A DNA stretch of 32,000 bases. Origin: Candidatus Saccharimonadota bacterium (GTDB taxonomy: Bacteria > Patescibacteriota > Patescibacteriia > 2-12-FULL-60-25). Both the position numbers and the translations under genes were made by a program. The stretch is from assembly GCA_016699205.1 (NCBI GenBank), contig CP064964.1, positions 900,001-932,000 of the forward strand, in the 5' to 3' direction. This document shows positions 4,081 through 25,368 of the stretch, in pieces; within the stretch, counting starts at the first letter, position 1; each line of letters begins with the position of its first letter. The notes beneath the pieces are model-generated. The model saw only the letters and a program-made list of their open reading frames with translations, did not search any database and was not told the origin of the DNA.

Positions 4081-4083
4081 TCT

Positions 4084-4287: not shown

Positions 4288-4290
4288 CGT

Positions 4291-4572
4291 ATGAAATCCA
4301 CTAACACACAACCTTCCGCGAAAGCCGAAGGCCAACCACGCCGCCTCCAAGGTGTTGTCGTTTCCACGGCAATGCAGAAGACGGCTGTGGTCCGCGTGGA
4401 TCGCCGCGTGGCTCATGCGAAGTACGGCAAGTACTTCACGATTTCCAATAAGTTCAAGATCCATGACCCGGAGAGCGCTTGCAAACTGGGTGATGTCGTC
4501 GAGTTCCAGGAAACGCGTCCGATCTCCAAGGACAAGCATTTCAAGTATTTGTCCACGGTTTCCGCTGCCTAA
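4291..4572 (+). CDS. rpsQ: 30S ribosomal protein S17
   Basis: ...[30 protein letters not shown]... S17 OB-fold signature. Confidence 0.9.
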
Positions 4573-4573
4573 T

Positions 4574-4945
4574 ATGGTTCAACATCGCTCTATGCTCGCC
4601 GTGGCAGACAACACGGGAGCCAAACTCCTCCAGGTGATCCAGGTCACTGGCGGTTACAAGAAGCGCTACGCCGTACTCGGTGACGTTGTGACGTGTGTCG
4701 TCAAAATTGCCGACCCGCGTGGCACCGTAAAGAAGTCGGATGTCGTTAAGGCGGTTCTCGTGCGTACGCGCAAAGAGACGCGCCGCCCGGACGGCACATA
4801 TATTCGTTTCGATGAAAACGCCGGTGTTATCGTCGATCTCAAGAACAAGGAACCCAAGGGTACGCGTATCTTTGGACCTGTTGCGCGTGAATTGCGCGGT
4901 CGTGGCTATGCCAAGATCGTGTCGCTTGCGCCGGAAGTCCTCTAA
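4574..4945 (+). CDS. rplN: 50S ribosomal protein L14
   Basis: ATG 4574 (TAATATG junction); [17 protein letters not shown]...; the longer ORF from 4352 overlaps rpsQ and is rejected. Confidence 0.95.
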
Positions 4946-4951
4946 GCCTTT

Positions 4952-5224
4952 ATGATCAAACTCCAACTCAAAACGGGTGACGAAGTCATCGTCATTGCCG
5001 GAAAGAACAAGGGGAAGAAGGGGAAAGTCGTGCAAACGCTTCCCAAGCTTAACCGTGTCGTGATCGAAGGCGTGAACATGACCAAGCGCCACATGCGCTC
5101 GCGTCGTTCCGAGGACAAAGGCCAGGTGATCGAGTTTGCCATGCCGATCCACGCTTCAAACGTGCAGCCCGTTGGTTCCAACGGTAAACCGATGCGCCAC
5201 TCCAAGGCGCGTAAGACTGCCTAA
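4952..5224 (+). CDS. rplX: 50S ribosomal protein L24
   Basis: ...KTGDEVIVIAGKNKGKKGKV... KOW motif. Confidence 0.9.
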   Translation: MIKLQLKTGDEVIVIAGKNKGKKGKVVQTLPKLNRVVIEGVNMTKRHMRSRRSEDKGQVIEFAMPIHASNVQPVGSNGKPMRHSKARKTA

Positions 5225-5227
5225 CCT

Positions 5228-5764
5228 ATGACACTTCAAGAACGCTACAATAAGGAGATCGTTCCGGCTCTTACCAAGGAGTTCGGAATCGAGAACCGCA
5301 TGGCCGTCCCGAAGGTCACGTCGGTTACGGTTTCTGTCGGCTTGTCGCAAGGCATCAAGGATCCGAAGGTGCTTGAGATGGTTGAGGCAACGCTCCGCCG
5401 CATCACCGGACAGAAGCCGGTGAAGACCAAGGCAAAAAAGTCCATCGCGAGCTTTAAAATCCGTGAAGGTATGATCGTCGGTATGATGGTCACGATTCGC
5501 GGCAAGCGCATGTGGGATTTTCTCACCCGCTTCACCCAGTTCACATTCCCTCGCATCCGCGACTTCCGCGGTATTTCAAAGCAGGGCATTGATGGCCGCG
5601 GCAACTTCTCGATCGGCTTCCGTGAGAACCTCGCGTTCCCGGAAATCCGCCCGGATGAAGTCGAACGCGTGCATGGCCTCCAAGTCACCGTGTCCACCAC
5701 GGCCGGAACCCGCGAGCGCGGCGAAGCGCTCCTGCGCGCTCTCGGTTTCCCATTCAACAACTAG
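5228..5764 (+). CDS. rplE: 50S ribosomal protein L5
   Basis: MTLQERYNKEIVPAL...FPEI... L5 signature. Confidence 0.95.
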   Translation: MTLQERYNKEIVPALTKEFGIENRMAVPKVTSVTVSVGLSQGIKDPKVLEMVEATLRRITGQKPVKTKAKKSIASFKIREGMIVGMMVTIRGKRMWDFLTRFTQFTFPRIRDFRGISKQGIDGRGNFSIGFRENLAFPEIRPDEVERVHGLQVTVSTTAGTRERGEALLRALGFPFNN

Positions 5765-5767
5765 TCT

Positions 5768-5953
5768 ATGGCTACTCAAGCGCAAATCGCCAAGTCACTT
5801 CGTAAACCGAAGTTCTCTACACGTGAGGTCCGCCGTTGCTGGCGCTGCGGCCGTAAGCACGCTTTCATGCGCGACTTCGGCATCTGCCGCATCTGCTTCC
5901 GCGAACTGGCCAACCGTGGCGAGCTTCCGGGTGTGACCAAATCGAGCTGGTAA
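5768..5953 (+). CDS. rpsN: 30S ribosomal protein S14, zinc-binding type Z (61 aa)
   Basis: [23 protein letters not shown] = CxxC...CxxC; short form; between rplE and rpsH. Confidence 0.95.
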
Positions 5954-5957
5954 TCCT

Positions 5958-6350
5958 ATGTATACCGATCCAATTAGCGACTTTCTGACCCGCATTCGCA
6001 ACGCGTATGCGGCCGGACTCGACACGATGAGCGTGCCGGGTTCGCGTATCAAACTTTCGATCGCCAAAGTGCTCGAGCGCGAAGGTTTTATCGCCAGCGT
6101 CAAAGAATCTTCCGAAGGACCAAAGAAATCCTTGGAAGTGACCTTGAAGTATGACGGTAAGGTTCCAGCACTCCGATCGATCGACCGTATCTCCACGCCA
6201 GGTCGCCGCGTGTATTCCAAATCGATTGAACTGCGTCCGGTTTTGTCCGGCCAGGGTATTGCGATTCTGTCGACGTCGGCAGGTATCATGACCAACCGCG
6301 AGGCTCGCCGCCGCAAGCTCGGTGGAGAAGTTCTCTGCGAAGTTTCCTAA
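5958..6350 (+). CDS. rpsH: 30S ribosomal protein S8
   Basis: MYTDPISDFLTRIRNA... S8 N-terminus. Confidence 0.95.
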   Translation: MYTDPISDFLTRIRNAYAAGLDTMSVPGSRIKLSIAKVLEREGFIASVKESSEGPKKSLEVTLKYDGKVPALRSIDRISTPGRRVYSKSIELRPVLSGQGIAILSTSAGIMTNREARRRKLGGEVLCEVS

Positions 6351-11278: not shown

Positions 11279-12406
11279 ATGTCGGCAGTGGCGTTTTTCG
11301 ATTCCCGTCTCCAGCGTCCGATTTCTCTGCGCGTTTCTGGTGAGGTGATTCGTCGTCAGGCGTATCCCTTTCCCGATCCCAAGCTCGTCGTCATCGCCGA
11401 GTCGGCGGGGGATGGGCGTACAGGCAAGGCGATTCTGCACTCGAAGGAGCTCAAGACGCGCACCAAGGGTGCGACCGAGCATCTCGAGATCTCCAACTCG
11501 TTCCGACTGCAGTCCATGCTCGAGCACATCGATCAGGGCGGCGTCTCGGAAGAGGAGCGGCTCAAGCGCCGTATCGACGAGCTCAGGACCGCGAGCGACT
11601 ACCTCATGCGCTCCGGTAAGCTCAAGGATGGCGATGCCAAGGAGATCACGCATCTCCTGCGTGCCATCGAGAACGATTTGGCGGCGCCCAAGCGCAATCC
11701 GCACAAGCTTGCGGCGAGCCGCAATGTCGGTAGCGGGCTTGGGTATCGGTCCCCGAAGGCGGGGAATCCGGTCGGGCCTGTGATCGCCATCGCGAGCCGC
11801 GGAGCGATCAAGCGTCTCGAGTCCCGCATCGCCGAAATTCTCGGTGTTCGGAGCTTTGCGAATCTGCGCCTTGCGCTTGTCACGGCCTTCAATCGCGAGG
11901 CCGAACAACTCTTCAAGGCTCTCAAGGAAGAGAAGGACATGCGTAACGGGGAGTTCCCGAAGCTGGTCGAGGAGCTCCGCTACATGCGCCTTCAGCCTTT
12001 CGAGGCTCCGTCGCGGCGCATCGAGCAGCTGTATGAGGAGTTTCGCTACGGCGATGCCAGCGAGATCGATACGTTTGCGGCCATCCGCCGCGAGCTGCAC
12101 GCCGTGCTCCTCGTGTGCGTGGTCGAGCGGCAGGTCATTCGACGGCTCTCGTACATGACGCATCGCTCGCTCGAGGAGAGCAAGATGAAGGAGCATCGCG
12201 AGGCCGCGATCCACTCGATCGTCAAGATCGCCAAGCATGTTGCGGCCTGCAGCTCGTTCAGCCAGGATGCGCGGAGCATCGCGGCGACCAAGCTCGAGCA
12301 TGCGCGCAACATCCTCGCTCAGGAAGACCTGTTCGAGACCCCCAAGAAGCGCCTCAAGAGCGCCGACAAGATTCTCAAAGAGCTGACGGCGATTCTGCCC
12401 GTCTGA
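11279..12406 (+). CDS. hypothetical protein (375 aa, charged, probably helical, no motif recognised)
   Basis: Long ORF with promoter and SD; GC3-rich codons; about 65% GC in three sampled 60-nt lines versus 42-53% in sampled adk/map/fpg lines; the co-extensive antisense ORF is judged a shadow. Confidence 0.7.
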   Translation: MSAVAFFDSRLQRPISLRVSGEVIRRQAYPFPDPKLVVIAESAGDGRTGKAILHSKELKTRTKGATEHLEISNSFRLQSMLEHIDQGGVSEEERLKRRIDELRTASDYLMRSGKLKDGDAKEITHLLRAIENDLAAPKRNPHKLAASRNVGSGLGYRSPKAGNPVGPVIAIASRGAIKRLESRIAEILGVRSFANLRLALVTAFNREAEQLFKALKEEKDMRNGEFPKLVEELRYMRLQPFEAPSRRIEQLYEEFRYGDASEIDTFAAIRRELHAVLLVCVVERQVIRRLSYMTHRSLEESKMKEHREAAIHSIVKIAKHVAACSSFSQDARSIAATKLEHARNILAQEDLFETPKKRLKSADKILKELTAILPV

Positions 12407-13333: not shown

Positions 13334-13558
13334 TCAGCGCAGGAGGCTCATTGCTAGGAAGTAGAATCCGAGGAAGAAGCCGAGCATCAGTAGACCGGCG
13401 ATCGTGAAAGCGATCCAGCCGAGCGCTGTCTTGGGCTCCGTATCTGCGGGTTTGGGTGGTTCGATGCCCTGGGCACGTAGCTCGGCTTCCTTGCGCTTGC
13501 GCTCTTCACGTTCGAGCTTGGCGTCGATCTCTGCATCGGCACGGGTGATTCTGGTCAT
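13334..13558 (-). CDS. small C-terminally anchored membrane protein (74 aa)
   Basis: GGAGGA SD 5 nt upstream of the ATG; charged helical N-terminal part plus one C-terminal TM segment (WIAFTIAGLLMLGFFLGFYFLAM). Confidence 0.6.
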   Translation of the reverse strand: MTRITRADAEIDAKLEREERKRKEAELRAQGIEPPKPADTEPKTALGWIAFTIAGLLMLGFFLGFYFLAMSLLR

Positions 13559-13729: not shown

Positions 13730-14401
13730 ATGCGATTACTTGTCGTAGAAGATGATCGCCAGGTTTCACAAGCGTTAAAGGATGTTCTTACGAAACAGTC
13801 TTTTAGCGTTGATACGACGGCGACGGGGGAGGATGCTTTGCGTTTAGCGAACGATGTTGCTTACGATGTCATTCTACTTGATTATGTCTTGCCTGGTATT
13901 GATGGAAAGCAAGTTTGCAAGATATTGCGCGAGCGCGGATTTCATACGCCGATCTTGATGTTGACTGTCCGATGCGAGACATCGGACAAAGTCTGCGCTT
14001 TGGATGAAGGTGCGGATGATTATTTGACCAAGCCGTTTTCAACGGATGAATTGGTTGCGCGCGTGCGTGCATTGCTGCGACGTTCGAAGGCGTTCCAGTC
14101 GGATACGTTTCAGTTGGATGATTTGGTTATCGACGGCAAACGTCAGCGTGTTGTTCGTGGTCAGCGCGAGATTTATTTGACTCGAAAAGAATTTGGTTTG
14201 TTGGAGTATCTCATGCGCAATCAGGGCGTTGTGCTTTCCCGTACGGATATCATGGAGCATGTTTGGGATAAGTCGGCTGACCCTGGATCGAATACGATCG
14301 AGACGCACATGATGACGCTTCGTAAGAAGGTCGATGAGGCGGGGAAGTCAAAACTTATCCACACGGTACAAGGGCGTGGTTACAAGATAGAAGTGCAGTA
14401 G
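13730..14401 (+). CDS. OmpR/PhoB-family response regulator
   Basis: Receiver MRLLVVEDD...ILLDYVLPGIDG...TKPF; winged helix ...LTRKEFGLLEYLMRN...TVQGRGYKI; ATG 13730 preferred over TTG 13721. Confidence 0.92.
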   Translation: MRLLVVEDDRQVSQALKDVLTKQSFSVDTTATGEDALRLANDVAYDVILLDYVLPGIDGKQVCKILRERGFHTPILMLTVRCETSDKVCALDEGADDYLTKPFSTDELVARVRALLRRSKAFQSDTFQLDDLVIDGKRQRVVRGQREIYLTRKEFGLLEYLMRNQGVVLSRTDIMEHVWDKSADPGSNTIETHMMTLRKKVDEAGKSKLIHTVQGRGYKIEVQ

Positions 14402-14460
14402 AAGATAAAGTCTTTATATAGATTTTATACTTGTTAAGATTTGAATGTTGTACTGTAGAG

Positions 14461-14489
14461 TTGATTCGGGGTCGACGAATCAACATATT
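14461..14489 (+). promoter_or_regulatory. inverted repeat TTGATTCG-N7-CGAATCAA overlapping a possible promoter (TTGATT - 17 nt - CATATT)
   Basis: Arms 14461..14468 / 14476..14483; CATATT 14484..14489, T7 run 14488..14494; could instead be the regulator gene terminator. Confidence 0.3.
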
Positions 14490-14513
14490 TTTTTATCCAC
14501 GCACTATTATATT

Positions 14514-14627
14514 ATGAACAAGCTCATCGAGAAGGTTCTCTCGGACGCATCTGTGCGTACGAATGGATCAGCTGGCTCTGTAGCCATCGCACTCGCTTCT
14601 GAAGAGTTCGCACCTTGGGGCCACTAG
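14514..14627 (+). CDS. 37-aa mini-ORF MNKLIEKVLSDASVRTNGSAGSVAIALASEEFAPWGH, candidate signalling-peptide precursor
   Basis: In-frame ATG inside listed ORF 14445..14627; the preceding 23 codons are AT-rich and overlap the repeat/promoter-like sequence; lies between regulator and kinase and is followed by a hairpin. Confidence 0.4.
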   Translation: MNKLIEKVLSDASVRTNGSAGSVAIALASEEFAPWGH

Positions 14628-14630
14628 TAT

Positions 14631-14702
14631 AAAAGAGACGATCCTTGCGGAAATCATGTTTTTTACATACGTTAGTTTCACCGCATGAAGATCGTCTCTT
14701 TT
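14631..14702 (+). other. long-range hairpin (13-bp perfect stem) enclosing the kinase start codon
   Basis: AAAAGAGACGATC 14631..14643 / GATCGTCTCTTTT 14690..14702; additional TGCGG/CCGCA pairing 14646..14650 / 14681..14685; T6 run 14699..14704. Confidence 0.5.
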
Positions 14703-16071
14703 TTGTACCGATTTTTCATCTCGCCTGTCAGCGAAGATGAGGATGGTAAGCGCCAAGAGTATATTCTAAATATTCTCCTGGTAAGTGCTTCGGCGCTATT
14801 GTTTTGCTTGTTTTTGATCGTTTGTTTGCAGCAAGCCTTCATCAAAGGCTATCAAGGTATTTCACCTGTCATAGCGTTTTTAGCTACAGTATTTTTTTCT
14901 AGCTTGTTGCTTCTTTCGCGGAAGGGGTTTTCTCGTATAGCCTCGTATTCCATTGTTGGGATTTTATTTCTTTATATTTTTTATGCGAATTATTCCTGGG
15001 GGCCAGATTTGCCTATTACGTGGATCCTGTATTGCTTTCTTATCACTATTTCTGGAATTTTGATCTCATCGCGTTTTGCTTTTTTTGTCACCACTGCGAT
15101 CGCTTCTGCTTTGATCTGGCTTACTTGGATGTTGAATGGCGGATACCTCGTACTTGCTCGAGATTGGAAGCAAACAAGTTTTTTATCTGGAGACGCCGTG
15201 GCAGCTTCTATCGCGTTTGCTTTGATCGCTATTTTTTCTTGGTTAGCAAATCGCGATCTTCGCGCTTCACTTCAGAGAGCACGTGTTTCGGAAGCGGCAT
15301 TACAAGTAGAACGTGATCAGCTTGAAATTAAAGTAGAAGAACGCACCAAACAGTTAAAGGAAGCTCAGGAAATCCAGTTGGAGCAGATGACGCGTTTTGC
15401 CGAGTTTGGCCAGCTTGCGAGCGGCATCATGCATGATTTGGCTAATCCGCTTACATCAATGTCGATCAATTTGCAGATGGTGAAGGATCAGGTGCCAGAG
15501 GATGTGCGGGATACAAATACATATATGGACCAGGCGCTACAAGCGACGAAGCGCATGGAGGAACTGGTGCAGGTTGCGCGACAGCAGTTTCAAAAGAAGC
15601 CGGATACGATTCCGTTTTCTTGGTGATGAGATTGAGCAAGCGGTGCAATTGCTGCAATCCAAAGCTCGGCCAGCGCATGTTTCCTTTGATTTGATGGATA
15701 TTGAACGGATCGAGTCTGTCGGAAGTCCGTTGAAGTTCCATCGGGTTGTCATGAATCTTTTGGCGAACGCCATTGAAGCCTATGCCGAATCCGATGTCGC
15801 TTATGAAGATCGTCTTATTCGGGTAACCTGCCACGAGAACCAGGGTGATGCGGTTATTGAGATTATTGATAAAGCCGGAGGAATTTCAAGCGAGCATTTG
15901 GAAAAGATTTTTAATCCGTTTTTTACAACCAAGAAAACCGGTAGTGGAATCGGATTGCCGACCGTGAAAGAGATTCTTCAGAAAGATTTTTCTGCGACGA
16001 TCGATGCCACAAGTACCAAAGATCAGACGGTATTTGAAATTCGTCTGCCGATACGCAAGAATCTAACTTGA
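14685..16071 (+). pseudogene. sensor histidine kinase with about 6 TM segments, interrupted by a frameshift
   Basis: Polytopic N-terminal half, coiled coil, H-box ASGIMHDLANPLT in frame 0 stops at 15626; N-box VVMNLLANAIEA, G1 [16 protein letters not shown]2 GSGIGLP continue in frame 1; removing one T from T4 15615..15618 gives ...KKPDTIPFLGDEIEQAVQLL... Confidence 0.85.
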
Positions 16072-16072
16072 T

Positions 16073-16936
16073 ATGGATATCGGCATCCGTGAACGGCTAT
16101 TGAGCACGGTTCGAAATTCACAGGATGTTGACGGCGGATTTACCAGCCTGAGCTCGCCGGACCCGGTTCATTTTTTGTCGTCGAGCCAGGCTTATCGGAC
16201 GAGTTTTGTGGCGGCGCATGTTTTGATAGCGCTTGCATCGTCGCGGGTTGAGGGTGCGGAAGATATCAAGGAAAAGATTGCCAGCTTTCTCTTGCGGCAA
16301 ATTTCTGAAACGGGTGCCGTGAATTATTGGGCGAGAGATTCAATCGAGGCAAAAACGAAACCGTATCCTGATGATCTTGATGATACGGCTTGCGTGATTG
16401 CCGGCTTAGCTTTGCATGATAAGAAGATTTTGGACGGCGAGTTACTTGGAAAAATTGTCGCTGCTTTACTCGCTTGCGAAGTCCAGCCGGGCGGGCCTTA
16501 TCGAACATGGCTTATTTCTGCTGATGCGAATCCTGTTTGGCGAGATATTGATCCGACTGTGAACGCACATCTGGCTTTTGCTTTGGGGAGTATTGAGATT
16601 GATTTGCCTGGTTTGGATGATTATTTGAGTAGCGTTTTGAACGATCAACAACTCCAATCGCCTTATTATCCAAATGAACTTTCCGCACTGTCTGCTTTAT
16701 CGAGACGGCCTCAGGGGCGTGAATCTGCGATTGTCGGACGTGTTCTCGCGTTACGGAATGGATTGACATGGGGAAATCCTGTGGCTGACGCGCTGGCTTT
16801 GGGGATATTGTTGCGTTTGGGGGATGTGAGCGGTTCATGGGGGTCTGAGATTGAACAATTGGCTCGAGCGGAACAGAGCCCTGCGCCCTACGCTTTTTGT
16901 ATTGATCCATCGCAGAAAGGCGTGAAGCATTTTTGA
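16073..16936 (+). CDS. prenyltransferase / squalene-cyclase-repeat (alpha/alpha barrel) protein with class II terpene cyclase motif DxDDTA
   Basis: QDVDGGF repeat; PYPDDLDDTACV (16370..16390) resembles the squalene-hopene cyclase catalytic motif; starts 1 nt after the kinase stop; ends at TGA 16934..16936. Confidence 0.7.
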   Translation: MDIGIRERLLSTVRNSQDVDGGFTSLSSPDPVHFLSSSQAYRTSFVAAHVLIALASSRVEGAEDIKEKIASFLLRQISETGAVNYWARDSIEAKTKPYPDDLDDTACVIAGLALHDKKILDGELLGKIVAALLACEVQPGGPYRTWLISADANPVWRDIDPTVNAHLAFALGSIEIDLPGLDDYLSSVLNDQQLQSPYYPNELSALSALSRRPQGRESAIVGRVLALRNGLTWGNPVADALALGILLRLGDVSGSWGSEIEQLARAEQSPAPYAFCIDPSQKGVKHF

Positions 16937-16948
16937 GGAGCATCGGCT

Positions 16949-18001
16949 TTGACGGCGGCGCTTCTTCTCGAGGCGCTATCGCTGGTCAGCGTGGATACTG
17001 TTGTGCAGCCAAGTTATTCAAGGGCAGATGAAATACATGAGCGCATTGTTGAACAAGCGTATGTTTTTATACAGAGTCTTGCGCCTGAGTTTTCAAAAGC
17101 GGCTCGCGTAGCAATCGAGTTGGCTATAATAAAAGATACGAAACGCCAGATTACGCTTACGCCGTTTATGGCAGCTGGCTTACTCGGTGAGCGTGGAGAA
17201 AAGGTATCGGAGCGTGCGATTGAATCGCTTGGGCTTGCGAGTCTGTTTGGCTGGCTTTCGTATACGCTTTTGGATGATGTGATGGATGGAGATCGTGATG
17301 CGAGCGCATTGCCTTTAGCTTCGACCTTTTTGCGAAAGATGCAGAGCGTTTTTGATGAAGTGCTTCCGGAGAATACGCATTTTCATCGATGGGTGATGCG
17401 GATGATGAATCGCGTTGATGCTTCCAATGCTTGGGAATTATCTTATTGTCGTTTTCAAGTTAAAGACGGTCGGATTTTTTTGCCAGAAACCATTCCTTCA
17501 TTTCGCGAGGACTGGATGCTGTTTGGGCGATCGATCGGACATGCGATTGGTCCGGTTGGTATTTTGTGCGAGCTTGGAGAGTCGCCGGAGAATGTTGTTG
17601 GCCAAGAGATGCTTGCTCGTTATTGTGAATTAATTCTCGTCAAACAGATGCATGATGATGCGCATGATTGGGAGTCGGATTTGATGCGCGGTCAGATGAA
17701 TTCTGCAGGCGCTCGCGTGCTTGAGCGATGGTATCGATTGCATCCGGAGAAACGAGGGAGCCAAGTTCTTATCGATGAAGTCAGGGAAGAGTGGCGGACG
17801 ATTTTTTGGATGGAGATTCTGCCAGTGTATTCCCAAGAAATTGTGCAGCGATGTGAGCGTTCTATTGAAAAGCTGCGAAGGTCAGAGCATCTTGTTACGC
17901 CGGAGAATCTGATTCATGGCTTTGAACGAGTCGCTAAAGGTGCGCAGGAAGCGCTTTCAGGGCGCGAAGAAATGCTGAAGTTTCTGAAGACTTTGAAGTA
18001 G
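16949..18001 (+). CDS. class I isoprenoid-synthase-fold protein (two Asp-rich motifs), ComQ / polyprenyl-synthase-like
   Basis: YTLLDDVMDGD (DDVMD 17273..17287) and QMHDDAHDWESDLMRGQMN (DDAHD 17654..17668); TTG start 8 nt after GAGGAG; same reading frame as 16073..16936. Confidence 0.65.
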   Translation: MTAALLLEALSLVSVDTVVQPSYSRADEIHERIVEQAYVFIQSLAPEFSKAARVAIELAIIKDTKRQITLTPFMAAGLLGERGEKVSERAIESLGLASLFGWLSYTLLDDVMDGDRDASALPLASTFLRKMQSVFDEVLPENTHFHRWVMRMMNRVDASNAWELSYCRFQVKDGRIFLPETIPSFREDWMLFGRSIGHAIGPVGILCELGESPENVVGQEMLARYCELILVKQMHDDAHDWESDLMRGQMNSAGARVLERWYRLHPEKRGSQVLIDEVREEWRTIFWMEILPVYSQEIVQRCERSIEKLRRSEHLVTPENLIHGFERVAKGAQEALSGREEMLKFLKTLK

Positions 18002-18004
18002 CTG

Positions 18005-19159
18005 TTATGGAGTGTACTTTGCAGGTTCGTAGACGTTGCGTGCATTCCACAAGATCCAGCCGGAAGCTTTTGCATCGCGAGAAGCTTTAATCTGCGCTTC
18101 GATACGTGCGGCCGTGTAGACAGCACCGAGATCAAAGTCTTGGATCCAGGGACGGAATTTTGCACGGGACTCTGCCTCATCGATGAAGTGATCGGTTTTG
18201 AGGATTTCCGCACCTTTATCGAGAGAATATTTTACAACTTCATATGGATGCTCGGCTGGATTTTTGAAGCCTTGGAATCCTGTCCAATAATGCGAGGGGT
18301 ATACCATCGGAGAAATGTAGTCGGCGTTGGGATAGACGTCTTCCAAACGTTGGCCGATGCCAAAGTCTTCCGCTGTTAAAAAGGTCATGCCAAAAAGGTC
18401 AAAGGAAACGGGGATATCTTCTTTTTTCAGTGTGCCGCCGAGCGTATCAAAAAAAGCACGCATAATCTCTCCTTTGGTTCTGGTTTTTTCTGCTTCGGTT
18501 TTAGCGATTGCAGAGAGGACGCCGTCGGAAGCGTAGCGGATATAATCGAATTGAATTTCATCGAAACCCATTTTGTAAGCTTCACGTGCGAGGTTGAGTG
18601 CTGATTCAGCGACTCCCGGGTGTGCAGGATCGAGCCAGGCGGCTCCGGTTTTATCGAGCCAGAGTTTTCCGCTGGTTGATTTGATGGCCTGTTCCGGGTG
18701 GGCGCGGGCGTAGACAGAGTCGCGCATGACAGGAAGACGAGCGATGCGATAGATGCCGTCTTGGCCGAGTTTATCGATGATTGCCTGCGGTGGCATTACG
18801 ACTTCTCCATTATCCATTTTGACATCGATCACGACGGTATTTAATCCTGTTTTGAGCATGTAGGTACGGAGTTCCTCGGCACGTTTATTGCGAGCGGTTT
18901 CCGCGGTCCAGTAGATGCCTCGGACCTCCTTTGGTACGGGTACATGGGCAATGACTGGTTCTGGTGCCTCGACTTCACGCAGGGTGTTTGTTGTTACGTC
19001 GGCTGGTTCTTGCGCTGGTTGCGGGGTGCTTACTTGGGCCAATTGTGCGGATTGTAGCGCTTTAAATTGCTGAAGGATTTCAAATCCTCCTAAACCGGCA
19101 GCTACAAGAATCAAGGATACCGGTATGCCGATATAAAACACCCCACGCTTTGGAAGCAT
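18005..19159 (-). CDS. putative glycoside hydrolase, DUF4015/COG1306-like TIM barrel, N-terminal membrane anchor
   Basis: ...VRGIYWTA...NTVVIDVK...GFDEIQFDYIRY... resembles this family from memory; single N-terminal TM. Confidence 0.7.
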   Translation of the reverse strand: MLPKRGVFYIGIPVSLILVAAGLGGFEILQQFKALQSAQLAQVSTPQPAQEPADVTTNTLREVEAPEPVIAHVPVPKEVRGIYWTAETARNKRAEELRTYMLKTGLNTVVIDVKMDNGEVVMPPQAIIDKLGQDGIYRIARLPVMRDSVYARAHPEQAIKSTSGKLWLDKTGAAWLDPAHPGVAESALNLAREAYKMGFDEIQFDYIRYASDGVLSAIAKTEAEKTRTKGEIMRAFFDTLGGTLKKEDIPVSFDLFGMTFLTAEDFGIGQRLEDVYPNADYISPMVYPSHYWTGFQGFKNPAEHPYEVVKYSLDKGAEILKTDHFIDEAESRAKFRPWIQDFDLGAVYTAARIEAQIKASRDAKASGWILWNARNVYEPAKYTP

Positions 19160-19180: not shown

Positions 19181-19894
19181 TTATTTCTTGGCGACAAAAT
19201 CGATTTGAAGGGGGACTTCATCGGCGACATCGGCCAAGAAGGGGAAATCCGGGATAACGAGGCTGTAGTCACTACGCTTGACGGTTGTTTTTACGGTTGC
19301 GGATAGTTCCGTGTCGGAAGTGAATTTGCCGACACCCTCCCATATTGCGGGTTTTGTCGTTCCGGAGATGGTGAGATCACCGGTGATGCGGAATGCGAAT
19401 TCCGCATTCAGGTCAATGGATTGCTTATCCGTTGTGATCGTTATCGGTTTGAAGATAATGAACTCGTTTGCGTCGTCTTCCGTTTTGAGGATCATGCGGC
19501 GCGTGGCGTTGTCACGTTTTTCGTCGTCGGTTTTAAACGTGCGCGCGTTTACGCGGATTTCACCGATCGAGGCTTTGGAAAGGTCTGTGCGATCGACCTC
19601 AAAGGTTCCCATGACTTCACTTGTTGCACCGATCACGGTTACCGGTTTACCGCGGAGCATCTCAAAAATAGAATAGGTGGCTTTGGAGGATTCAGGGATA
19701 ATGCGATAGGTGCCAGTTGGGACGACGGCAGTAGGAGTAGCGGGCTCGACTGAAGGGGTCGGTGCAGGACGTTCGTCCGTGACTGTTGGCAGGGTACTAG
19801 GGGCCTTTGTTGGGGCTGTGAGAGCGTTGTAGGTGATGAAACCGCCGATGATAAGAACAAGGACGGAAATGATGGCAATAAGCGATTTTTTCAT
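19181..19894 (-). CDS. YceI-family (polyisoprenoid-binding) protein with signal/anchor sequence
   Basis: ATG 19894 gives MKKSLIAIISVLVLIIGG...; ...SKATYSIFE...VIGATSEVMGTFEVD...DEKRDNATRR...ITGDLTISGTTKP... YceI pattern. Confidence 0.85.
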   Translation of the reverse strand: MKKSLIAIISVLVLIIGGFITYNALTAPTKAPSTLPTVTDERPAPTPSVEPATPTAVVPTGTYRIIPESSKATYSIFEMLRGKPVTVIGATSEVMGTFEVDRTDLSKASIGEIRVNARTFKTDDEKRDNATRRMILKTEDDANEFIIFKPITITTDKQSIDLNAEFAFRITGDLTISGTTKPAIWEGVGKFTSDTELSATVKTTVKRSDYSLVIPDFPFLADVADEVPLQIDFVAKK

Positions 19895-19992
19895 AGGTTT
19901 GCCCGTATTACGCCGTCTGCGCCGATATCTTTCAACCCCGCTGGACAAGATGAATGGATTTCGTGTTTGATGCGTACTAAACATAGGCCTGC

Positions 19993-20562
19993 ATGACGAA
20001 CCATAACGTCACACGTGCCGACGAGGATATCGTCGGCGATGCCTTAGTGCATAAAGAGGTTTTTGCGCTTTTGGTCCTTCGCTATCAAGAACGGTTGGCG
20101 CGCTATTTGCGTCGCCTTGGCGTGATGCGGCGCGAGGATATGGAGGATGTGCTGCAAAACGTGTTTTTGAAAACGTATCGGAACTTGAACGAGTTTGATC
20201 GTCAGTTAAAATTTTCTTCGTGGATTTATCGCATTACGCATAATGAGGCAATGAGTTTTTTTCGTTCGACATCCTCGCGTCCCGAGGGTCATCCTGTTGA
20301 CGATGCGGAGCTTGTCCTCGAGCAGTTGAGCGGGTCGGCAGATACATCGATGGAGACGGAGCTCGGTTTGAATGCGTCGCAATTGACGGAGGCGCTAAAA
20401 AAGCTGGAATCAAAGTATCGCGATGTCATCGTTCTAAGATATTTTGAAGAGCGCGAGTACGCCGAGATCTCGGATATTTTGCGGATTCCGACCGGAACGG
20501 TTGCTACACTCTTGAATCGAGCCAAGAAACGTCTGCGCGATACGCTATCCCATCTTGTCTAA
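19993..20562 (+). CDS. ECF-type RNA polymerase sigma factor
   Basis: Region 2 ...DVLQNVFLKTYRNLNEFD...FSSWIYRITHNEA...; region 4 ...VIVLRYFEEREYAEISDILRIPTGTVATLLNRAKKRL... Confidence 0.9.
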   Translation: MTNHNVTRADEDIVGDALVHKEVFALLVLRYQERLARYLRRLGVMRREDMEDVLQNVFLKTYRNLNEFDRQLKFSSWIYRITHNEAMSFFRSTSSRPEGHPVDDAELVLEQLSGSADTSMETELGLNASQLTEALKKLESKYRDVIVLRYFEEREYAEISDILRIPTGTVATLLNRAKKRLRDTLSHLV

Positions 20563-20563
20563 T

Positions 20564-21436
20564 ATGAACGAAATCGAACTCAAACCCAACGGTTCTTCAG
20601 AAGACCTTGCCCACAAGGTTCTTGATCGGATTGAGGAAGAGCATGTGGTTCCACGACCCAAGTGGCAATTTACGGTAAAAGACCGTTTGTTCTGGGCGTT
20701 CTGGATTGTGTCTATCGTGCTCGGTTCATTACTCGCTGCCGTGCTGGTTTATTCGATTGTGAATGCCGGCTGGGAATATCGCTCGCTGACGCATAAGAAT
20801 TTGTTTGGATTTGTTTGGCAGGTATTGCCGCTCTTTTGGATTATCGCTTTGCTCGGTGCGCTTTTGCTTGCGTATGATAATGTTCGCCACACGTCGAGAG
20901 GTTACCGATTTCCTTTAACGGCGATTGTCAGTTTGAGTCTGCTCGTAACCGTTATCGGAGGATTTATTTTTTACGTCGCGGGTGCCGGCCGTGTTGTCGA
21001 TGAGGAGGTTGGGGGACGAATCCCGGCGTATCGACCCGTGATGAAGCGTCAGCAGCAGATGTGGTCTAAGCCGGAACAGGGGCTGTTGGCTGGAGAGGTG
21101 CTCGCATTTGATCGAGATCAGGCTTTGATGCGCTTGAAAGGATTCGATGGAAATCTGTATCTCATGGATACTCAGGATCTTGCGGACGACAGCCGAGATG
21201 TTTTGGTCGAGCGGGAATCGGTGCGCGTGATCGGGGTGTTCGCTAAGCCGTCAGATGGGCCTGATAAGCCTTATTTCCGCCCTTGCTACGTATTTCCTTG
21301 GGACCCTCAAAGCAAAAATTTGTTGAAAGTAAAATGCGACCCCGAAAGAACATTTGATGAGCCGCGTAGTACTGAATGTAAGGGTTTGATTCCTTACGAG
21401 ATTCTCAAGACGCTCCGCCGCGGTGCGTGCCGCTAA
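20564..21436 (+). CDS. membrane protein, candidate anti-sigma factor (by position only)
   Basis: ATG 20564 lies 1 nt after the sigma stop (TAATATG); short cytoplasmic N-terminus, 3 hydrophobic segments, extracytoplasmic C-terminal domain with Cys residues. Confidence 0.55.
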   Translation: MNEIELKPNGSSEDLAHKVLDRIEEEHVVPRPKWQFTVKDRLFWAFWIVSIVLGSLLAAVLVYSIVNAGWEYRSLTHKNLFGFVWQVLPLFWIIALLGALLLAYDNVRHTSRGYRFPLTAIVSLSLLVTVIGGFIFYVAGAGRVVDEEVGGRIPAYRPVMKRQQQMWSKPEQGLLAGEVLAFDRDQALMRLKGFDGNLYLMDTQDLADDSRDVLVERESVRVIGVFAKPSDGPDKPYFRPCYVFPWDPQSKNLLKVKCDPERTFDEPRSTECKGLIPYEILKTLRRGACR

Positions 21437-21458
21437 TCCCTTGTCTTGCTTTTTACCT

Positions 21459-21881
21459 ATGAAGTATCGTGCGTTATTTTATTCAACCGCCGTCGCTCTT
21501 CCGCTCGCCGCTCTCGCGTTAACCGGCGCACATGCTGCGACCATGGATACTACCGCTGGAATTTCCGATGCCCCTAAATGGGGGATGTTCCAGAAGGCGA
21601 ATCTCACCGATGCGCAGAAGGCCGCTGTAGAACAGGCAAAAGCTCTGCATGAGCAAGCGCGCGCTCTGCATGAACAGGCCGACGCGATACTCGAGAAAGC
21701 CGGTTTACCGGTTCATCGACCGGGGAAGATGAAACGTATCCAGTTAACGGATGAGCAGAAGTTGATACTCGAGCAGGCGAAGACTCTGCGTGAGCAGGGA
21801 AAGAATGATGAAGCGAGGGTTCTTCTTGAAACGTCGGGAATCCCAAAACCGTCTAGGGGTTTCATGCATCAAGTAAAGTAA
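21459..21881 (+). CDS. secreted LTXXQ-motif protein (CpxP/Spy-like)
   Basis: Signal peptide MKYRALFYSTAVALPLAALALTGAHA; two LTDxQK motifs (LTDAQK, LTDEQK) in helical repeats. Confidence 0.65.
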   Translation: MKYRALFYSTAVALPLAALALTGAHAATMDTTAGISDAPKWGMFQKANLTDAQKAAVEQAKALHEQARALHEQADAILEKAGLPVHRPGKMKRIQLTDEQKLILEQAKTLREQGKNDEARVLLETSGIPKPSRGFMHQVK

Positions 21882-21895: not shown

Positions 21896-21928
21896 AAAAA
21901 CGCACCATGCATGGAATGGTGCGTTTTT
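21896..21928. terminator. bidirectional intrinsic terminator
   Basis: AAAAACGCACCAT 21896..21908 / ATGGTGCGTTTTT 21916..21928, between convergent genes. Confidence 0.7.
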
Positions 21929-22433
21929 ATTTTGAGTAGATGTAGAGACCGTTACGTTTTTCTTTCAGCGTCCAATTTGGGAATTGGAAGCCGAGGGAAA
22001 TGACTTGCGATCCTGGTTTTAATTCGCGCTGCAATTTTTCTTCCAATCTTCCCATGATGTAGATGACGCCAAAGACGATGATGACGTCGAAATCGGAAAG
22101 ATCGGCTTTCCAGAGGTCTTTCCAATGTGTTTTCGCGAGATGATCGAGATGTAGTTGTTTACTTTTTCTACGTGACCACCAGACGAGTACGGGATTGATT
22201 TCAAAACCGTGCGCCTCGATTCCTTGTTTGGCGAGCGCGATGAGAATGCGGCCGTCTCCGGAGCCGATGTCGGCAATTTTAAGATTTGGACGCTTATCGA
22301 TGAGCTCGAGAATCTTTTCCACGCCTTCATGTTTTGTAGGGATAAAGGGCGCGCCCCTGTAGAGCAACCAGACGGCGCCCACATCGACCAAGATGAGGAG
22401 GGCGGCGATCCAGACCAATGGTTCTTGCAACAT
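21927..22433 (-). CDS. class I SAM-dependent methyltransferase with N-terminal TM segment
   Basis: Motif I IADIGSGDGRILIALA; N-terminal hydrophobic helix. Confidence 0.8.
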   Translation of the reverse strand: MLQEPLVWIAALLILVDVGAVWLLYRGAPFIPTKHEGVEKILELIDKRPNLKIADIGSGDGRILIALAKQGIEAHGFEINPVLVWWSRRKSKQLHLDHLAKTHWKDLWKADLSDFDVIIVFGVIYIMGRLEEKLQRELKPGSQVISLGFQFPNWTLKEKRNGLYIYSK

Positions 22434-22463
22434 CGCGTATCAGGTTATACTCTCCGTCGGAAT

Positions 22464-24098
22464 ATGGCCAAGAAATCGAGTACAAGTGCATTGACCAAGG
22501 AACAGCATGCCGCGCAAGACGCGCGCTATGCGGAAGGGCATTCCTACGATTATGTGATTATCGGGACGGGGAGTTCCGCGCTTACCGTCGGTGCTTTGCT
22601 TGCGAATGCCGGGCACAAGGTCTGCCTGATTGAGGCGCATGATATCCCCGGAGGTTATGCGCAGACGTTCCACACGGGCGATTATCATTTTTGTGCGCAG
22701 GTGCATTACATTTGGGGATGTGCGCCGGGTGGAAAGATTTACGAGTTTTTGAAGCGTGTCGGTTTGGAGAAGGATATTACGTTTGAACTTCTCGATAAAA
22801 ATGGGTATGACCACATGGTGATGCCGGATGGAAAACGTGTTCCTATTCCGTATGGTTGGGACAAGCTGATTGAGAACGTGGTTGCGGCGTATCCGGACCA
22901 GAAATCTACGATGGAAAAATTTGTCGCTGTTCTACGGAAGGTGCGCGAGGAATTCCGGACGTTTCCCGAGACGATCAAGCCGATTGACTATCTCAAGGCG
23001 TACAAATATCCGACGATTATCAAGTATCGAAACGCAACGGTGCAAGATTTATTTGATGAATGTGGTTTGAGCAAGGAAGCGCAAGCTGTTTTGTGCGCCA
23101 ATGCGGGCGACTACATGCTTCCGCCGGAGAAGCTCTCGTTGTTTATGTATATCGCTTTGTTTGGCGGGTACAATACGGGCGCCTATTATCCGACAAAGCA
23201 CTTTAAGTATTATATTCAGCGCTTGGCCGACTTTATTACGAGTCACGAGGGCTGCCATATTTATTACGAAACGCCTGTCGATAAGATTAACGTTGAGAAC
23301 GGCATTGTAACGAGTGTTGGAACGGCAAATGGCAAAACGTTTACGGCAAAGAACTTTATTTGTAACGGCGATCCGCAGACGATGGCAAAGAAAATCGGTT
23401 TGGAGAAGTTTTCTGCCGACGACAAAAAGAAACTATCGTATCAGTACTCGCAAGCCGGTGTTGTTGTGTATCTTGGATTGAAGGGAATCGATCTGCGTGA
23501 TTACGGTTTTGGCTCCTTCAATATCTGGCATCTTGAGGATTGGGATATGAATGAAATGTGGCGCCAGATGGGCGCAACCAATTTTGAAAAGCCATGGCTT
23601 TTCATGTCGACGCCAACGCTGCATACGGATGCGGGCGGTACGACGCCGGGACCTGATTGCCAGATTCTCGAGCTCGCATCGTACACAGAATACCAGCCAT
23701 TCAAGGATGCGCAGGACAAGAGTTACGCGGAATATATGAAGTTGAAGTTGAAGACGGCGGAAAAGATGATCGATCTAGTCGAGAAAAAATATGTGCCGGA
23801 TATCCGGAAGCATATAGTCGTGAAAACGATTGGGACATCGGTGACGAATGAGGATTTCTGTTTGGCTCCAAAGGGGAATGCGTATGGTTCGGATATGACT
23901 CCGGAGCAAGTCAGCAAGAATCGTCTCAAAGCAAAAACACCGTTTCCAAATTTTTGGTGGTGTAACGCGTCGAGCGGATGGGCGGGGATGTACGGAACTG
24001 TGTCGACAGGAATGGGGCTTTATATGGATTTAACCGGAGATCGGTTCTACGAGGGTCCAAAAGCACCGAGCGATGACGAGTTTATCCGAGCGCTTTAA
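22464..24098 (+). CDS. FAD-dependent oxidoreductase, phytoene desaturase (CrtI)-like family
   Basis: ATG 22464; YDYVIIGTGSSALTVGALLANAGHKVCLIEAHDIPGG dinucleotide fold; 544 aa; the upstream part of ORF 22209.. overlaps the methyltransferase and is rejected. Confidence 0.8.
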   Translation: MAKKSSTSALTKEQHAAQDARYAEGHSYDYVIIGTGSSALTVGALLANAGHKVCLIEAHDIPGGYAQTFHTGDYHFCAQVHYIWGCAPGGKIYEFLKRVGLEKDITFELLDKNGYDHMVMPDGKRVPIPYGWDKLIENVVAAYPDQKSTMEKFVAVLRKVREEFRTFPETIKPIDYLKAYKYPTIIKYRNATVQDLFDECGLSKEAQAVLCANAGDYMLPPEKLSLFMYIALFGGYNTGAYYPTKHFKYYIQRLADFITSHEGCHIYYETPVDKINVENGIVTSVGTANGKTFTAKNFICNGDPQTMAKKIGLEKFSADDKKKLSYQYSQAGVVVYLGLKGIDLRDYGFGSFNIWHLEDWDMNEMWRQMGATNFEKPWLFMSTPTLHTDAGGTTPGPDCQILELASYTEYQPFKDAQDKSYAEYMKLKLKTAEKMIDLVEKKYVPDIRKHIVVKTIGTSVTNEDFCLAPKGNAYGSDMTPEQVSKNRLKAKTPFPNFWWCNASSGWAGMYGTVSTGMGLYMDLTGDRFYEGPKAPSDDEFIRAL

Positions 24099-25368
24099 TC
24101 ACTTGCTCCGCGACGCGTTCTCCATTACGGAGCGCGCCTTCCGTCCACGGGCCGTTCAGATAGTCGCCGGAGAAGAAGACGTTGTTTGCGCCTTGACCGT
24201 CATGCATGAAGTTGCTGACGCGCTGCAGATGGCCGTGGGAGAATTTGGGCATCGCTTCTACCCAGCGTTCCAAATCATGGTTTTGTAGTTGATCGATCGA
24301 ATCGAACCATGGGCATACCTTGATCAGTTCGGGTTTTACGGCTGAGAAAATTTCTTCGTCTGTGTTTCCGATCAGTGTTTTTGCAAAATCTTCATGCAGC
24401 CATGCGCAGATCAATGTTTTTTCGCCAATGACCAGCTCTTCACCTTTCATCGCCTCGTTAACATATCCGGAAATTTTTGAGCTTTCCACAAACGGGACCC
24501 AGACGACGGCGGTGTCGGGGAGAAGGTTGCGATCGACGCGGAAGGCGATGCTGATCGACGAGGCGTATTGGGTATTCGTCAGTACATCGGATTGTTGTTC
24601 CGTCGGGTTTATATAGATCTTGCTGCTAACCGTGGCTTGAGAGGCGAGGACAACCGCGTCGAATGTTTGTGTCGTGCCTTTTGAGTCGACCAGGTTCACG
24701 TTCTCGCCGCCGACAATTTCTTTGACGGGGGAGTTGAGATGTATGTTGAGGCGTTCAGCAAATGCATTTGGCAACGCCTGCATGCCTCCTTTGGTGCGGT
24801 GAAGATGCCATCGACCCGGTTCTGTCTCAATGGATTTCATGATGCCTTTCAATGCGGCGACGCTGATTTCTTCCGCGCGGTGGAATTGATACGTTGAGGT
24901 AAATGCGTCGACGTAATAATCTGCGACGTCTTTTCCGGCCCAGCGGCGCATGTAGTCGTAAGCGTTGTCGGTGTCTTGTCCAGCGAGTTCGTCGAGATCC
25001 AAGAAATTGCCAATATTTTTTGCAAGGAAAAATTGCCACGTGAAACGCAGCTTGGAGAGCATGCCAACGGCGTCCGCAAACGGAACGAGTTCTCCCTTTT
25101 GGAAAATGGCGTATTTGAGAAAGCGCATCTTTTCCCATTCGATGCCAAATTCCTTACAGTAATATTTAATTCGATCGTAGAGGTCGCACAAATGGTCGGC
25201 GCCGAGGTCAAAGACGAATCCGTCTTTGGTGCGCGAGCTCATGCGCCCGCCGACGTAGGCGTTTTTTTCATAGACCGTCACCTCATAACCGTTTTGTTTT
25301 AACGTATAGGCGCAGGCGAGTCCGGCGATTCCGGCGCCGATGACGGCAATGCGTTTTTTCTCAGACAT
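24082..25368 (-). CDS. FAD-dependent oxidoreductase, amine oxidase / protoporphyrinogen oxidase / HpnE-like family
   Basis: KRIAVIGAGIAGLACAYTLKQNGYEVTVYEKNAYVGGR; C-terminal ...VFFSGDYLNGPWTEGALRNG...; 17-nt 3' overlap with the convergent gene. Confidence 0.8.
   Translation of the reverse strand: MSEKKRIAVIGAGIAGLACAYTLKQNGYEVTVYEKNAYVGGRMSSRTKDGFVFDLGADHLCDLYDRIKYYCKEFGIEWEKMRFLKYAIFQKGELVPFADAVGMLSKLRFTWQFFLAKNIGNFLDLDELAGQDTDNAYDYMRRWAGKDVADYYVDAFTSTYQFHRAEEISVAALKGIMKSIETEPGRWHLHRTKGGMQALPNAFAERLNIHLNSPVKEIVGGENVNLVDSKGTTQTFDAVVLASQATVSSKIYINPTEQQSDVLTNTQYASSISIAFRVDRNLLPDTAVVWVPFVESSKISGYVNEAMKGEELVIGEKTLICAWLHEDFAKTLIGNTDEEIFSAVKPELIKVCPWFDSIDQLQNHDLERWVEAMPKFSHGHLQRVSNFMHDGQGANNVFFSGDYLNGPWTEGALRNGERVAEQVIKALG

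Follow-up and report, generated by a model that had tools for sequence, protein, structure and literature searches.

We analysed a 32,000-nucleotide window of a Candidatus Saccharimonadota genome (contig CP064964.1, positions 900,001 to 932,000 of the forward strand) and, within it, four genes grouped around a very short open reading frame (ORF) at 14514..14627 on the + strand. As described in the initial annotation, this ORF runs from ATG to TAG and encodes 37 amino acids; its translation, MNKLIEKVLSDASVRTNGSAGSVAIALASEEFAPWGH, begins with the leader-like segment MNKLIEKVLSDASVRT, continues through a variable middle and carries an invariant tryptophan, Trp35, within APWGH. The first gene of the group encodes an OmpR-family response regulator (13730..14401, + strand; Pfam Response_reg 1.4e-28, Trans_reg_C 1e-25), and the third a histidine kinase (14685..16071, + strand) in which Pfam recognizes HisKA and then, in a second frame, HATPase_c after ~6 transmembrane segments. 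The peptide ORF occupies the sole gap between regulator and kinase, and the Pfam domains of both neighbours confirmed the identities that had been proposed for them. The gene after the kinase (16073..18001, + strand) encodes a cyclase/trans-isoprenyl diphosphate synthase (trans-IDS)-like enzyme with an N-terminal PYPDDLDDT motif and, in its C-terminal part, DDxxD twice. Regulator, peptide, kinase and enzyme are contiguous on the + strand in the window, as they are, on a single strand, in ~58 related loci.

The initial annotation had proposed that the ORF is the precursor of a modified signalling peptide, while allowing that so short a frame might have arisen by chance, and had pointed to selection, frame integrity and translation signals as the places to look. 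Close relatives provided the comparison. L001, a 1.07-Mb contig of GCA_963851785.1 located via the regulator protein (which is present in exact form on 5 public contigs), shares 99.1% identity with the window and has the same spacer and peptide ORF without a single change. L005 and L006, two ENA contigs with ~88% identical DNA, were found through a called homologue, P0001, in a word-index protein search; queries for peptide homology were lengthened with upstream in-frame residues. Between the window and L005, substitutions inside the ORF fell 3/4/17 on codon positions 1/2/3, with 17 of the 24 at third positions (chi-square p = 5e-4). The Nei–Gojobori method counted 17 differences at 26.5 synonymous sites and 9 at 81.5 non-synonymous sites, giving an omega (dN/dS, the ratio of non-synonymous to synonymous change) of 0.08 (Fisher p = 3e-7), comparable to the values for the regulator (0.07), kinase (0.15) and enzyme (0.10). 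The frame was intact in all ~60 orthologous spacers examined; in loci further removed, whose kinases share 57% and 35% identity, MEKLMQKVLSDASVRTENNAGAAVLAAEAYAPWYG and MANIIENILTNEDVRQKADIERLSLSEGEFEPWWS occupy the same regulator–kinase gap. The peptide ORF is a real gene under purifying selection and not a chance ORF.

Translation signals agreed with this at the level of the family. A canonical AAGGAGGTGAT Shine–Dalgarno (SD) site lies 6–9 nt ahead of the homologous peptide ATG in 38 of 60 unique loci. No SD precedes the peptide gene of the window itself; this is uninformative because most genes of this genome have no recognizable SD, including secY (8423), adk (9780), map (10434), the regulator (13730), the kinase (14685) and the enzyme (16073). 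A sigma-70 consensus scan found no + strand promoter upstream of the peptide ORF, and a search of the whole window against Rfam at the gathering threshold found no known RNA family over the spacer. The ORF had been called unannotatable, which holds in part: Pfam and NCBIfam searches with the peptide gave no match to ComX, NHLP, Nif11 or any other family, and the ORF was not called as a gene in the NCBI assembly of L001, but some pipelines do call homologues, as hypothetical proteins of 31–60 aa.

The frame upstream of the ORF stays open to an ATG at 14445, which would give 60 aa. This longer version was rejected: its N-terminal 23 residues overlap a conserved non-coding hairpin, and L008 has a stop just upstream of the corresponding ATG. 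The 37-aa start was taken as the conserved one because of the comparison with relatives.

Scanning metagenome contigs with an alignment of the enzyme yielded 80 loci. The kinase lies directly upstream of the enzyme in all 80 enzyme-anchored loci with enough upstream DNA, except in L154, and a regulator was detected before the kinase in most. Every regulator–kinase spacer examined that had enough DNA holds one ORF of the peptide family. Across these ~60 loci the neighbouring proteins are only 30–60% identical, yet the peptide ORF remains intact and alignable. A hidden Markov model of the peptide, run against 18,465 six-frame segments of the loci, gave exactly one match per locus, always on the same strand and, except in L154, just upstream of the kinase. 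Sampling anchored on the peptide gave a consistent picture: among four matches that were looked up, two contigs show a regulator, the peptide and an ORF in the kinase position, one contig stops at the peptide and one begins there. Of the first two, only L174 has kinase domains on record for the ORF in the kinase position; this contig also extends as far as the enzyme, which is present. The combination of regulator, peptide, six-transmembrane-segment kinase and enzyme is a conserved cassette across Patescibacteria.

In the exception, L154, neither a kinase nor any two-component system lies nearby, and the enzyme is directly preceded by the peptide gene. In this contig (2622..3451 and 3770..6085) the peptide–enzyme pair follows an HTH_3/IrrE-like (Peptidase_M78) gene pair and lies near SIR2-like and HNH genes. 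Elsewhere, a canonical polyprenyl synthase gene (polyprenyl_synt, PF00348, 2e-57) lies immediately downstream of the enzyme in 16–19 loci and an ABC-type ATPase gene lies nearby in 7.

Family statistics were drawn from 80 unique peptide sequences (~60 metagenome loci). The peptides are 34–43 aa long (median 36) and follow the consensus M-K-K-L-I-K-K-V-L-T-D-K-x-A-R-N ... (P)W-x(0-10). Leu9 is present in 80/80 peptides, Arg15 in 79/80 and Thr10 in 66/80, with Ser instead of Thr in the clade of the window; the N-terminal 16 residues are conserved in amino acids across phylum-level divergence. The stretch between Arg15 and the tryptophan ranges from hydrophobic to acidic. It is net hydrophilic in 29/80 peptides, and often acidic in the examples that were read; this rules out a transmembrane small protein as a property of the family. 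In the C-terminal part the sole invariant residue is the tryptophan, found near the C terminus in 80/80, preceded directly by Pro in 60/80 and the single Trp of the peptide in 73/80. It is followed by a variable tail of 0–10 residues in all 80 and is itself the last residue in 2/80. The conserved W-G-x terminus that had been expected was not borne out, as Gly follows the Trp in just 13/80; what is conserved is (P)W plus 0–10 variable residues.

When the peptide profile was searched against 1.8 billion representatives, 22 matches were obtained at E <= 1e-3. All but one (21/22) are family peptides of 31–82 aa, mostly 31–43 aa; the other, P0129 (918 aa), is a chance match to EASVRTEGSVGT repeats in a repeat protein. 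As judged from sequence, a conserved N terminus, a variable core and one invariant modifiable residue make up the pattern typical of precursors of RiPPs, peptides that are made by the ribosome and modified after translation, and of ComX.

The enzyme of related loci is 642–648 aa long (~645 aa). Homology searches found at least 340 relatives, all annotated as hypothetical, and those with named sources come from Parcubacteria, Microgenomates, Levybacteria, Saccharimonadales, Paceibacterota and Patescibacteria. No Pfam or NCBIfam family was matched above threshold by the window, L005, L087 or L089 proteins; a PDB-sequence search with the L005 enzyme as a single sequence likewise gave no match. 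For PF00348 there was no match at E <= 10 with the intact L005, L087 and L089 enzymes and none with the window fragments, so that the likeness to this family is one of fold only. In an alignment of 50 enzyme sequences, P-Y-P-D-D-L-D-D-T is invariant in the N-terminal half (D101, D103 and T105), and in the C-terminal half the motifs Y-D-D-F-L-D and A-R-Q-L-N-D-D-A-H-D-W-E, 127 residues apart, are invariant or nearly so, with D401/D405 and Q525/D528/D532/D536 invariant.

The family profile matched the class II cyclase domain of drimenol synthase (9mhs, 9m7d; E = 3e-14), aligning PDDLDDT of the enzyme with PDDLDTT of drimenol synthase. AlphaFold modelled the enzyme very confidently, the full-length protein with a predicted local distance difference test (pLDDT) score of 94.4 and the C-terminal domain from the window's own sequence (16982-17998) with a pLDDT of 95.7. 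In Foldseek searches, the best matches of the N-terminal domain were the drimenol synthase AsDMS and squalene-hopene cyclases (SHC; 4e-9). The C-terminal domain gave 82 PDB matches at E <= 1e-3, of which the top 50 were all farnesyl diphosphate synthases (FPPS), geranylgeranyl diphosphate synthases (GGPPS) or hexaprenyl diphosphate synthases, that is, trans-IDS, the top matches having E ~1e-5 and template-modelling (TM) scores of 0.5–0.65. On the basis of these predicted structures and motifs, we assign the enzyme as a putative class II terpene cyclase domain (DxDDT) fused to a trans-IDS-like domain, and regard it as a candidate Trp prenyltransferase/cyclase of the peptide. In the window the gene carries an in-frame TGA at 16934-16936, where L001 has TGC.

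The first 190 residues of the kinase contain about six hydrophobic, transmembrane-like segments, and a large extracellular domain is lacking. ComP, a peptide-sensing kinase, is of like build, with many transmembrane segments and no large extracellular domain (PMC4008528). The cassette kinase is intact at 462 aa in L001 and L005, while in the window a 2-nt deletion in a T-run at ~15611-15615 splits it. Comparing L001, which is close to the window, with L005 showed that divergence is unevenly spread. Nucleotide identity is 90–99% over fpg, the regulator and the catalytic half of the kinase (92–96% for the latter), but 73% in the peptide gene and 50–70% in the membrane domain of the kinase; at the amino acid level, the N-terminal membrane half of the kinase is 58% identical and the C-terminal half 95%. 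Against L005, the hypervariable block is sharply localized to 14526-15273 of the window. A second dip in identity, to 74–78%, was seen at 16974-17123, near the start of the IDS-like domain of the enzyme. In 3 of 8 other informatively diverged pairs, the effect ran the same way. This divergence resembles the comQXP pherotype polymorphism described in Bacillus (PMC4008528), and suggests a pherotype-like pattern in which peptide core and kinase membrane domain diverge together. The pattern is suggestive and not conclusive, because sensor domains generally evolve fast.

The peptide gene is flanked by RNA structures. Upstream, a terminator scan identified a hairpin with a GGGTCGA loop (14460..14484, + strand), followed by T7 at 14488-14494. 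Over the block 14441-14513 the window and L005 hardly differ, though nearby synonymous sites have diverged. A GGTCG(A) motif lies 25–59 nt upstream of the ATG in all ~17 loci that have no SD (besides the window, L005, L094, L008, L125, L126, L129, L146, L163, L116, L156, L162, L169, L170, L118, L098 and L172). It sits within a hairpin loop in ~10 of these ~17, with arms that differ between lineages, and often 8–10 nt past a TATAAT-like box. The hairpin at 14460..14484 could be the terminator of the regulator, a promoter/operator, or a promoter-proximal or 5′-untranslated-region stem-loop of the peptide gene.

Downstream, a long hairpin followed by a U-run (14627..14708, + strand) bridges the peptide stop codon to codons 2–6 of the kinase and encloses the kinase AUG (14685). 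The hairpin that the initial annotation had placed after the ORF is thus present: the folding energy of 14622-14712 is -28 kcal/mol (z = -5.35), a stability reached by 0/200 shuffles. In the clade of the window, the basal helix pairs AAAGAGACGATC, from the stop codon onward, with GATCGTCTCTTT in kinase codons 2–6, the U-run coming next, and in L005, L007 and L008 the arms covary completely, with different sequence and equivalent pairing. The spacer after the peptide gene is structured (z < -2) in 21 of 42 unique loci, either as a long hairpin enclosing the kinase start or as a compact terminator-like stem-loop directly after the peptide gene. We read the post-peptide hairpin as a probable leaky terminator after a small precursor gene, which in the window clade may additionally mask the start of the kinase.

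The closest functional parallel is ComQXPA of Bacillus subtilis and other Firmicutes (PMC4008528). Both systems have an isoprenoid-fold enzyme, a short Trp-containing precursor, a polytopic kinase and a regulator, encoded by four adjacent same-strand genes with no dedicated exporter, and in both, strain divergence is concentrated in the peptide and the sensor half of the kinase, as in pherotypes. They differ at the level of every protein. ComQ has ~300 aa, belongs to PF00348 and has no second Asp-rich motif (SARM) (PMC10853753), whereas the enzyme here has ~645 aa, keeps its SARM intact and includes a class II cyclase domain as well. ComX has 52–73 aa and belongs to PF05952, whereas the precursor here has 34–43 aa and no PF05952 match; the ComX criterion places Trp within 5–10 residues of the C terminus, and here it lies within 0–10 residues in 80/80. 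ComP carries HisKA_3 (PF07730), as opposed to HisKA (PF00512) here, where HATPase_c and a multi-transmembrane N terminus are present, and ComA is of the LuxR/GerE type (PF00196), as opposed to the OmpR type (Response_reg plus Trans_reg_C). Gene order is Q-X-P-A in ComQXPA and A-X-P-Q here, and the hosts are Firmicutes and Patescibacteria, respectively; a 2014 census found ComQXPA loci in Firmicutes only (PMC4008528). Because none of the proteins has the full Pfam signature of its ComQXPA counterpart, the cassette is an analogue of ComQXPA and neither a homologue nor a member. The ComX-like C terminus noted initially stands in the sense that a near-C-terminal Trp is universal, although the peptide is an analogue of ComX and not a homologue.

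Two further systems share parts of this architecture. In Paenibacillus alvei, the genes for PalQ, PalX and PalP lie in one cluster, which encodes a kinase, a precursor whose C-terminal Trp is conserved, and a prenyltransferase (PMC10853753). The likeness extends to a histidine kinase, a precursor with a C-terminal Trp and a prenyltransferase of the isoprene-synthase superfamily; PalQ had previously been annotated merely as a terpene synthase and was discovered through its predicted structure, as was the enzyme fold here. PalX, however, has an NHLP leader of ~70 aa and a Trp that must be the last residue, whereas the peptides here have a 16-aa motif leader and a terminal Trp in only 2/80, and PalQ has no cyclase domain, whereas the enzyme here has one. 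The second system is ChrPC, a prenyltransferase–cyclase fusion whose cyclase domain cyclizes the installed prenyl group; the chemistry reported for its type is Trp prenylation (C10–C20) followed by cyclization of the prenyl chain (PMC13290415). By its description, ChrPC likewise joins a trans-IDS-like domain and a class II cyclase in one polypeptide beside a Trp-containing ribosomal peptide. Its name suggests the order prenyltransferase then cyclase, whereas the enzyme here has the cyclase first, and no dedicated two-component system has been reported for ChrPC types, whereas the cassette has one. According to Hubrich et al. (Chem 2024), ChrPC-type substrates are reportedly proteusin, Nif11-like and lasso-type precursors, unlike the 36-aa family here, and the ChrPC- and NctPC-type products are reportedly natural products, not pheromones. 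The enzyme is a match to the ChrPC concept, as known here from description, at the level of predicted fold and motifs.

With trans-IDS-like Trp prenyltransferases as a group the enzyme shares the alpha-helical isoprenoid synthase fold, a FARM (the first of the Asp-rich motifs) and a conserved Gln shortly before the SARM or pseudo-SARM. These motifs do not set it apart from canonical IDS, in which an FQxxDD motif is found too. For the N-terminal domain, the closest solved relatives are AsDMS and monodomain class II terpene cyclases (PDB 9mhs, 9m7d, 8pak), which share the catalytic context PDDLD(D/T)T. These act on free farnesyl diphosphate or polyprenes and occur either by themselves or as fusions with a HAD phosphatase, whereas the enzyme here adjoins a peptide gene and is fused to an IDS-like domain. 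The cassette is most likely a new variant of prenyl-tryptophan peptide systems, spread across the candidate phyla radiation (CPR). Among the features that set it apart from ChrPC, PalQ or ComQ are the cyclase-first order, the intact SARM, the 36-aa precursor family, the dedicated two-component system and the Patescibacteria-wide spread.

The peptide is probably the precursor of a lipid-modified Trp peptide, because it lies between a regulator and a sensor and beside a fused cyclase/prenyltransferase-like enzyme. ComQ, PalQ and the P domain of ChrPC are trans-IDS-like peptide prenyltransferases, and all characterized enzymes of this kind target Trp (PMC13290415). The modified-precursor part of the initial proposal thus gains support from the enzyme in the cassette and the invariant Trp, while we infer prenylation, cyclization, processing, export and the ligand–receptor relationship from genomic linkage. 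In the mechanism we propose, the conserved N-terminal segment M-K-K-L-I-K-K-V-L-T-D-K-x-A-R would act as a recognition leader, and the trans-IDS-like C-terminal domain would transfer a prenyl chain to the single invariant Trp. In many relatives the adjacent canonical polyprenyl synthase could supply this chain. Protonation and cyclization of the chain by the class II cyclase domain (DxDDT) at the N terminus may follow, as reported for ChrPC-type maturases. The adjacent kinase would sense the lipidated peptide, released or membrane-bound, with its polytopic membrane domain and would signal through the OmpR-type regulator. The hairpin or terminator after the peptide gene may keep peptide transcripts in excess over kinase transcripts, and in the window clade the same hairpin may mask the kinase start codon.

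The steps of this scheme carry different weight. We favour, with some reserve, the reading that the ORF encodes the ribosomal precursor of a Trp-prenylated peptide within a ComQXPA-like four-gene cassette, and we hold it to about the same degree probable that the peptide is the Trp substrate of the enzyme. That the product serves as a self-signal is a more tentative proposal, which we would not back at even odds. The full picture, in which CPR bacteria widely carry a self-contained pheromone system made of a Trp-prenylated, terpene-cyclized 36-aa peptide, sensed by a six-transmembrane-segment kinase and an OmpR-type regulator and diversified into pherotypes, is possible but more doubtful still.

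Several observations weigh against these proposals. Among the neighbour genes of the loci no protease or exporter gene is conserved. The peptide matches no known leader family (NHLP, Nif11 or ComX in Pfam and NCBIfam). Its middle region is strongly hydrophobic (mean Kyte–Doolittle >1.5) in 11/80 members, which could be small membrane proteins. The fold of the enzyme's C-terminal domain is assigned from a predicted structure with TM-scores of 0.5–0.65, and hhalign found no homology signal (probability 1%) between this domain and the neighbouring canonical polyprenyl synthases; because of this we reject membership of PF00348 and claim fold and motifs alone. Unlike ComQ, the enzyme keeps an intact second Asp-rich motif (PMC10853753), and could therefore elongate chains for its own cyclase without ever touching the peptide. 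Quick evolution of kinase sensor domains is common and not specific to co-evolution with a ligand. Finally, the kinase and enzyme genes of the window are both disrupted, and the system may be non-functional or decaying in this strain, or the assembly error-prone.

The strongest competing account, although we consider it unlikely, is that the peptide is an unmodified accessory of the two-component system that binds the kinase or regulator, like MgrB or SafA, and that the enzyme independently makes a cyclic terpenoid, either a membrane lipid or the true signal. Such a role would suit a gene placed between regulator and kinase in ~60 loci, the hydrophobic middle, basic N terminus and interfacial Trp of some members, and an enzyme whose intact FARM, SARM and cyclase domain could make a terpenoid alone. 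It fits less well with the 29/80 hydrophilic middles, which show that a transmembrane helix is no feature of the family, and with the fact that the sole invariant C-terminal residue is of the only type targeted by characterized trans-IDS-like peptide prenyltransferases (PMC13290415). Moreover, L154 keeps the peptide with the enzyme though the two-component system is absent, and the canonical polyprenyl synthase that is often adjacent would make a second chain-elongating domain redundant.

Ranking next, and likewise unlikely, is a peptide that is modified by the enzyme but acts as an antimicrobial, a host-directed lipopeptide or a membrane anchor, with the two-component system regulating its production or immunity to it. 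CPR bacteria live attached to hosts, which makes a host-directed factor plausible, and the ABC-type ATPase gene near 7 loci is in keeping with this role, as is the reported nature of ChrPC- and NctPC-type products. No immunity or export genes are conserved, however, and the peptide is tightly placed between regulator and kinase. The apparent co-divergence of peptide core and kinase membrane domain between near-identical strains also argues against it, being a signature of ligand–receptor pairs such as ComX/ComP.

Much less probable is a cis-acting leader or arrest peptide. In that case translation of the ORF and a ribosome halted at its stop codon would open the hairpin that hides the kinase start or ends transcription and would so set the level of the kinase, with no function left to the peptide as such. 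The geometry in the window clade invites this idea, since the 5′ arm of the hairpin starts at the ORF stop and the 3′ arm covers kinase codons 2–6 ahead of the U-run, and the arms covary in L005, L007 and L008. The conserved Pro-Trp near the stop may also resemble arrest motifs. Across the family, however, the hairpin geometry is not kept, the structure in many loci being either a compact, terminator-like stem-loop placed well ahead of the kinase start or not significant, whereas the peptide is conserved end to end, including its N-terminal 16 residues across phylum-level divergence; a purely cis-acting role is unlikely for this reason. A tail of 0–10 residues after the Trp does not fit a fixed arrest register, and in L154 no kinase follows the peptide gene. 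As for a chance frame in an intergenic spacer, the ORF has only 37 codons, no SD in the window and no gene call in L001, but an omega of 0.08 (Fisher p = 3e-7), an intact frame in ~60 loci and a canonical SD in 38/60 have already refuted it.

The surroundings of the cassette were also surveyed. Upstream, a conserved 375-aa protein with no Pfam match (11279..12406, + strand) lies between map and fpg, and occupies the same position in L001, L089 and L090. Relative to L001, where fpg is intact, the window has one additional A in an A-run at 12736 that splits fpg, and a dense cluster of changes lies within this gene at 12870-12920. The kinase and enzyme are likewise intact in L001, and the peptide gene is intact in the window; the lesions in fpg, kinase and enzyme, all within 7 kb, reflect either assembly errors or pseudogenization. 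Between fpg and the regulator lies a 74-aa ORF (13334..13558, - strand) without a Pfam match, in which a charged N-terminal portion precedes a hydrophobic helix at the C terminus; L001, L002, L004 and L005 all have it called as a gene, and a homologue occurs in L007.

Past the cassette, the window encodes a DUF4015 putative glycosyl hydrolase (18005..19159, - strand) and a YceI-like protein (19181..19984, - strand; Pfam YceI 5e-17), of a family named for polyisoprenoid binding. The two genes are also adjacent in L005 and L089, and the YceI-like gene is possibly, though uncertainly, associated with the cassette. They are followed by an ECF-type sigma factor and then two ORFs with no Pfam match (19993..21881, + strand), a small methyltransferase (21927..22433, - strand) and, near it, a convergent flavin amine-oxidase/phytoene-desaturase-like gene pair (22209..24098, + strand; 24082..25368, - strand), which might relate to isoprenoid chemistry. 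A tRNA (26655..26725, + strand) is the only match in the window at the Rfam gathering threshold.

Patescibacteria, or CPR, are ultra-small symbionts with genomes of ~1 Mb, and we know of no cell–cell signalling described in them; a literature search found no report of such a cassette in CPR or Patescibacteria. If the proposed reading is true, CPR would have in this cassette their first peptide system for quorum sensing or kin recognition, and a peptide–cyclic-terpenoid hybrid would for the first time have a role in signalling. ComX-type prenyl-peptide signalling would extend beyond Firmicutes into a major, largely uncultivated radiation, and prenyltransferase–cyclase RiPP chemistry would be tied to a dedicated sensor pathway, suggesting a signalling role for it. 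Hundreds of ~645-aa ‘hypothetical proteins’ and an often-missed peptide family would gain a testable function, and the hypervariable peptide–receptor block could mark strains or pherotypes in metagenomes. The peptide, enzyme and kinase can be reconstituted heterologously, which would offer a handle on the biology of CPR bacteria.

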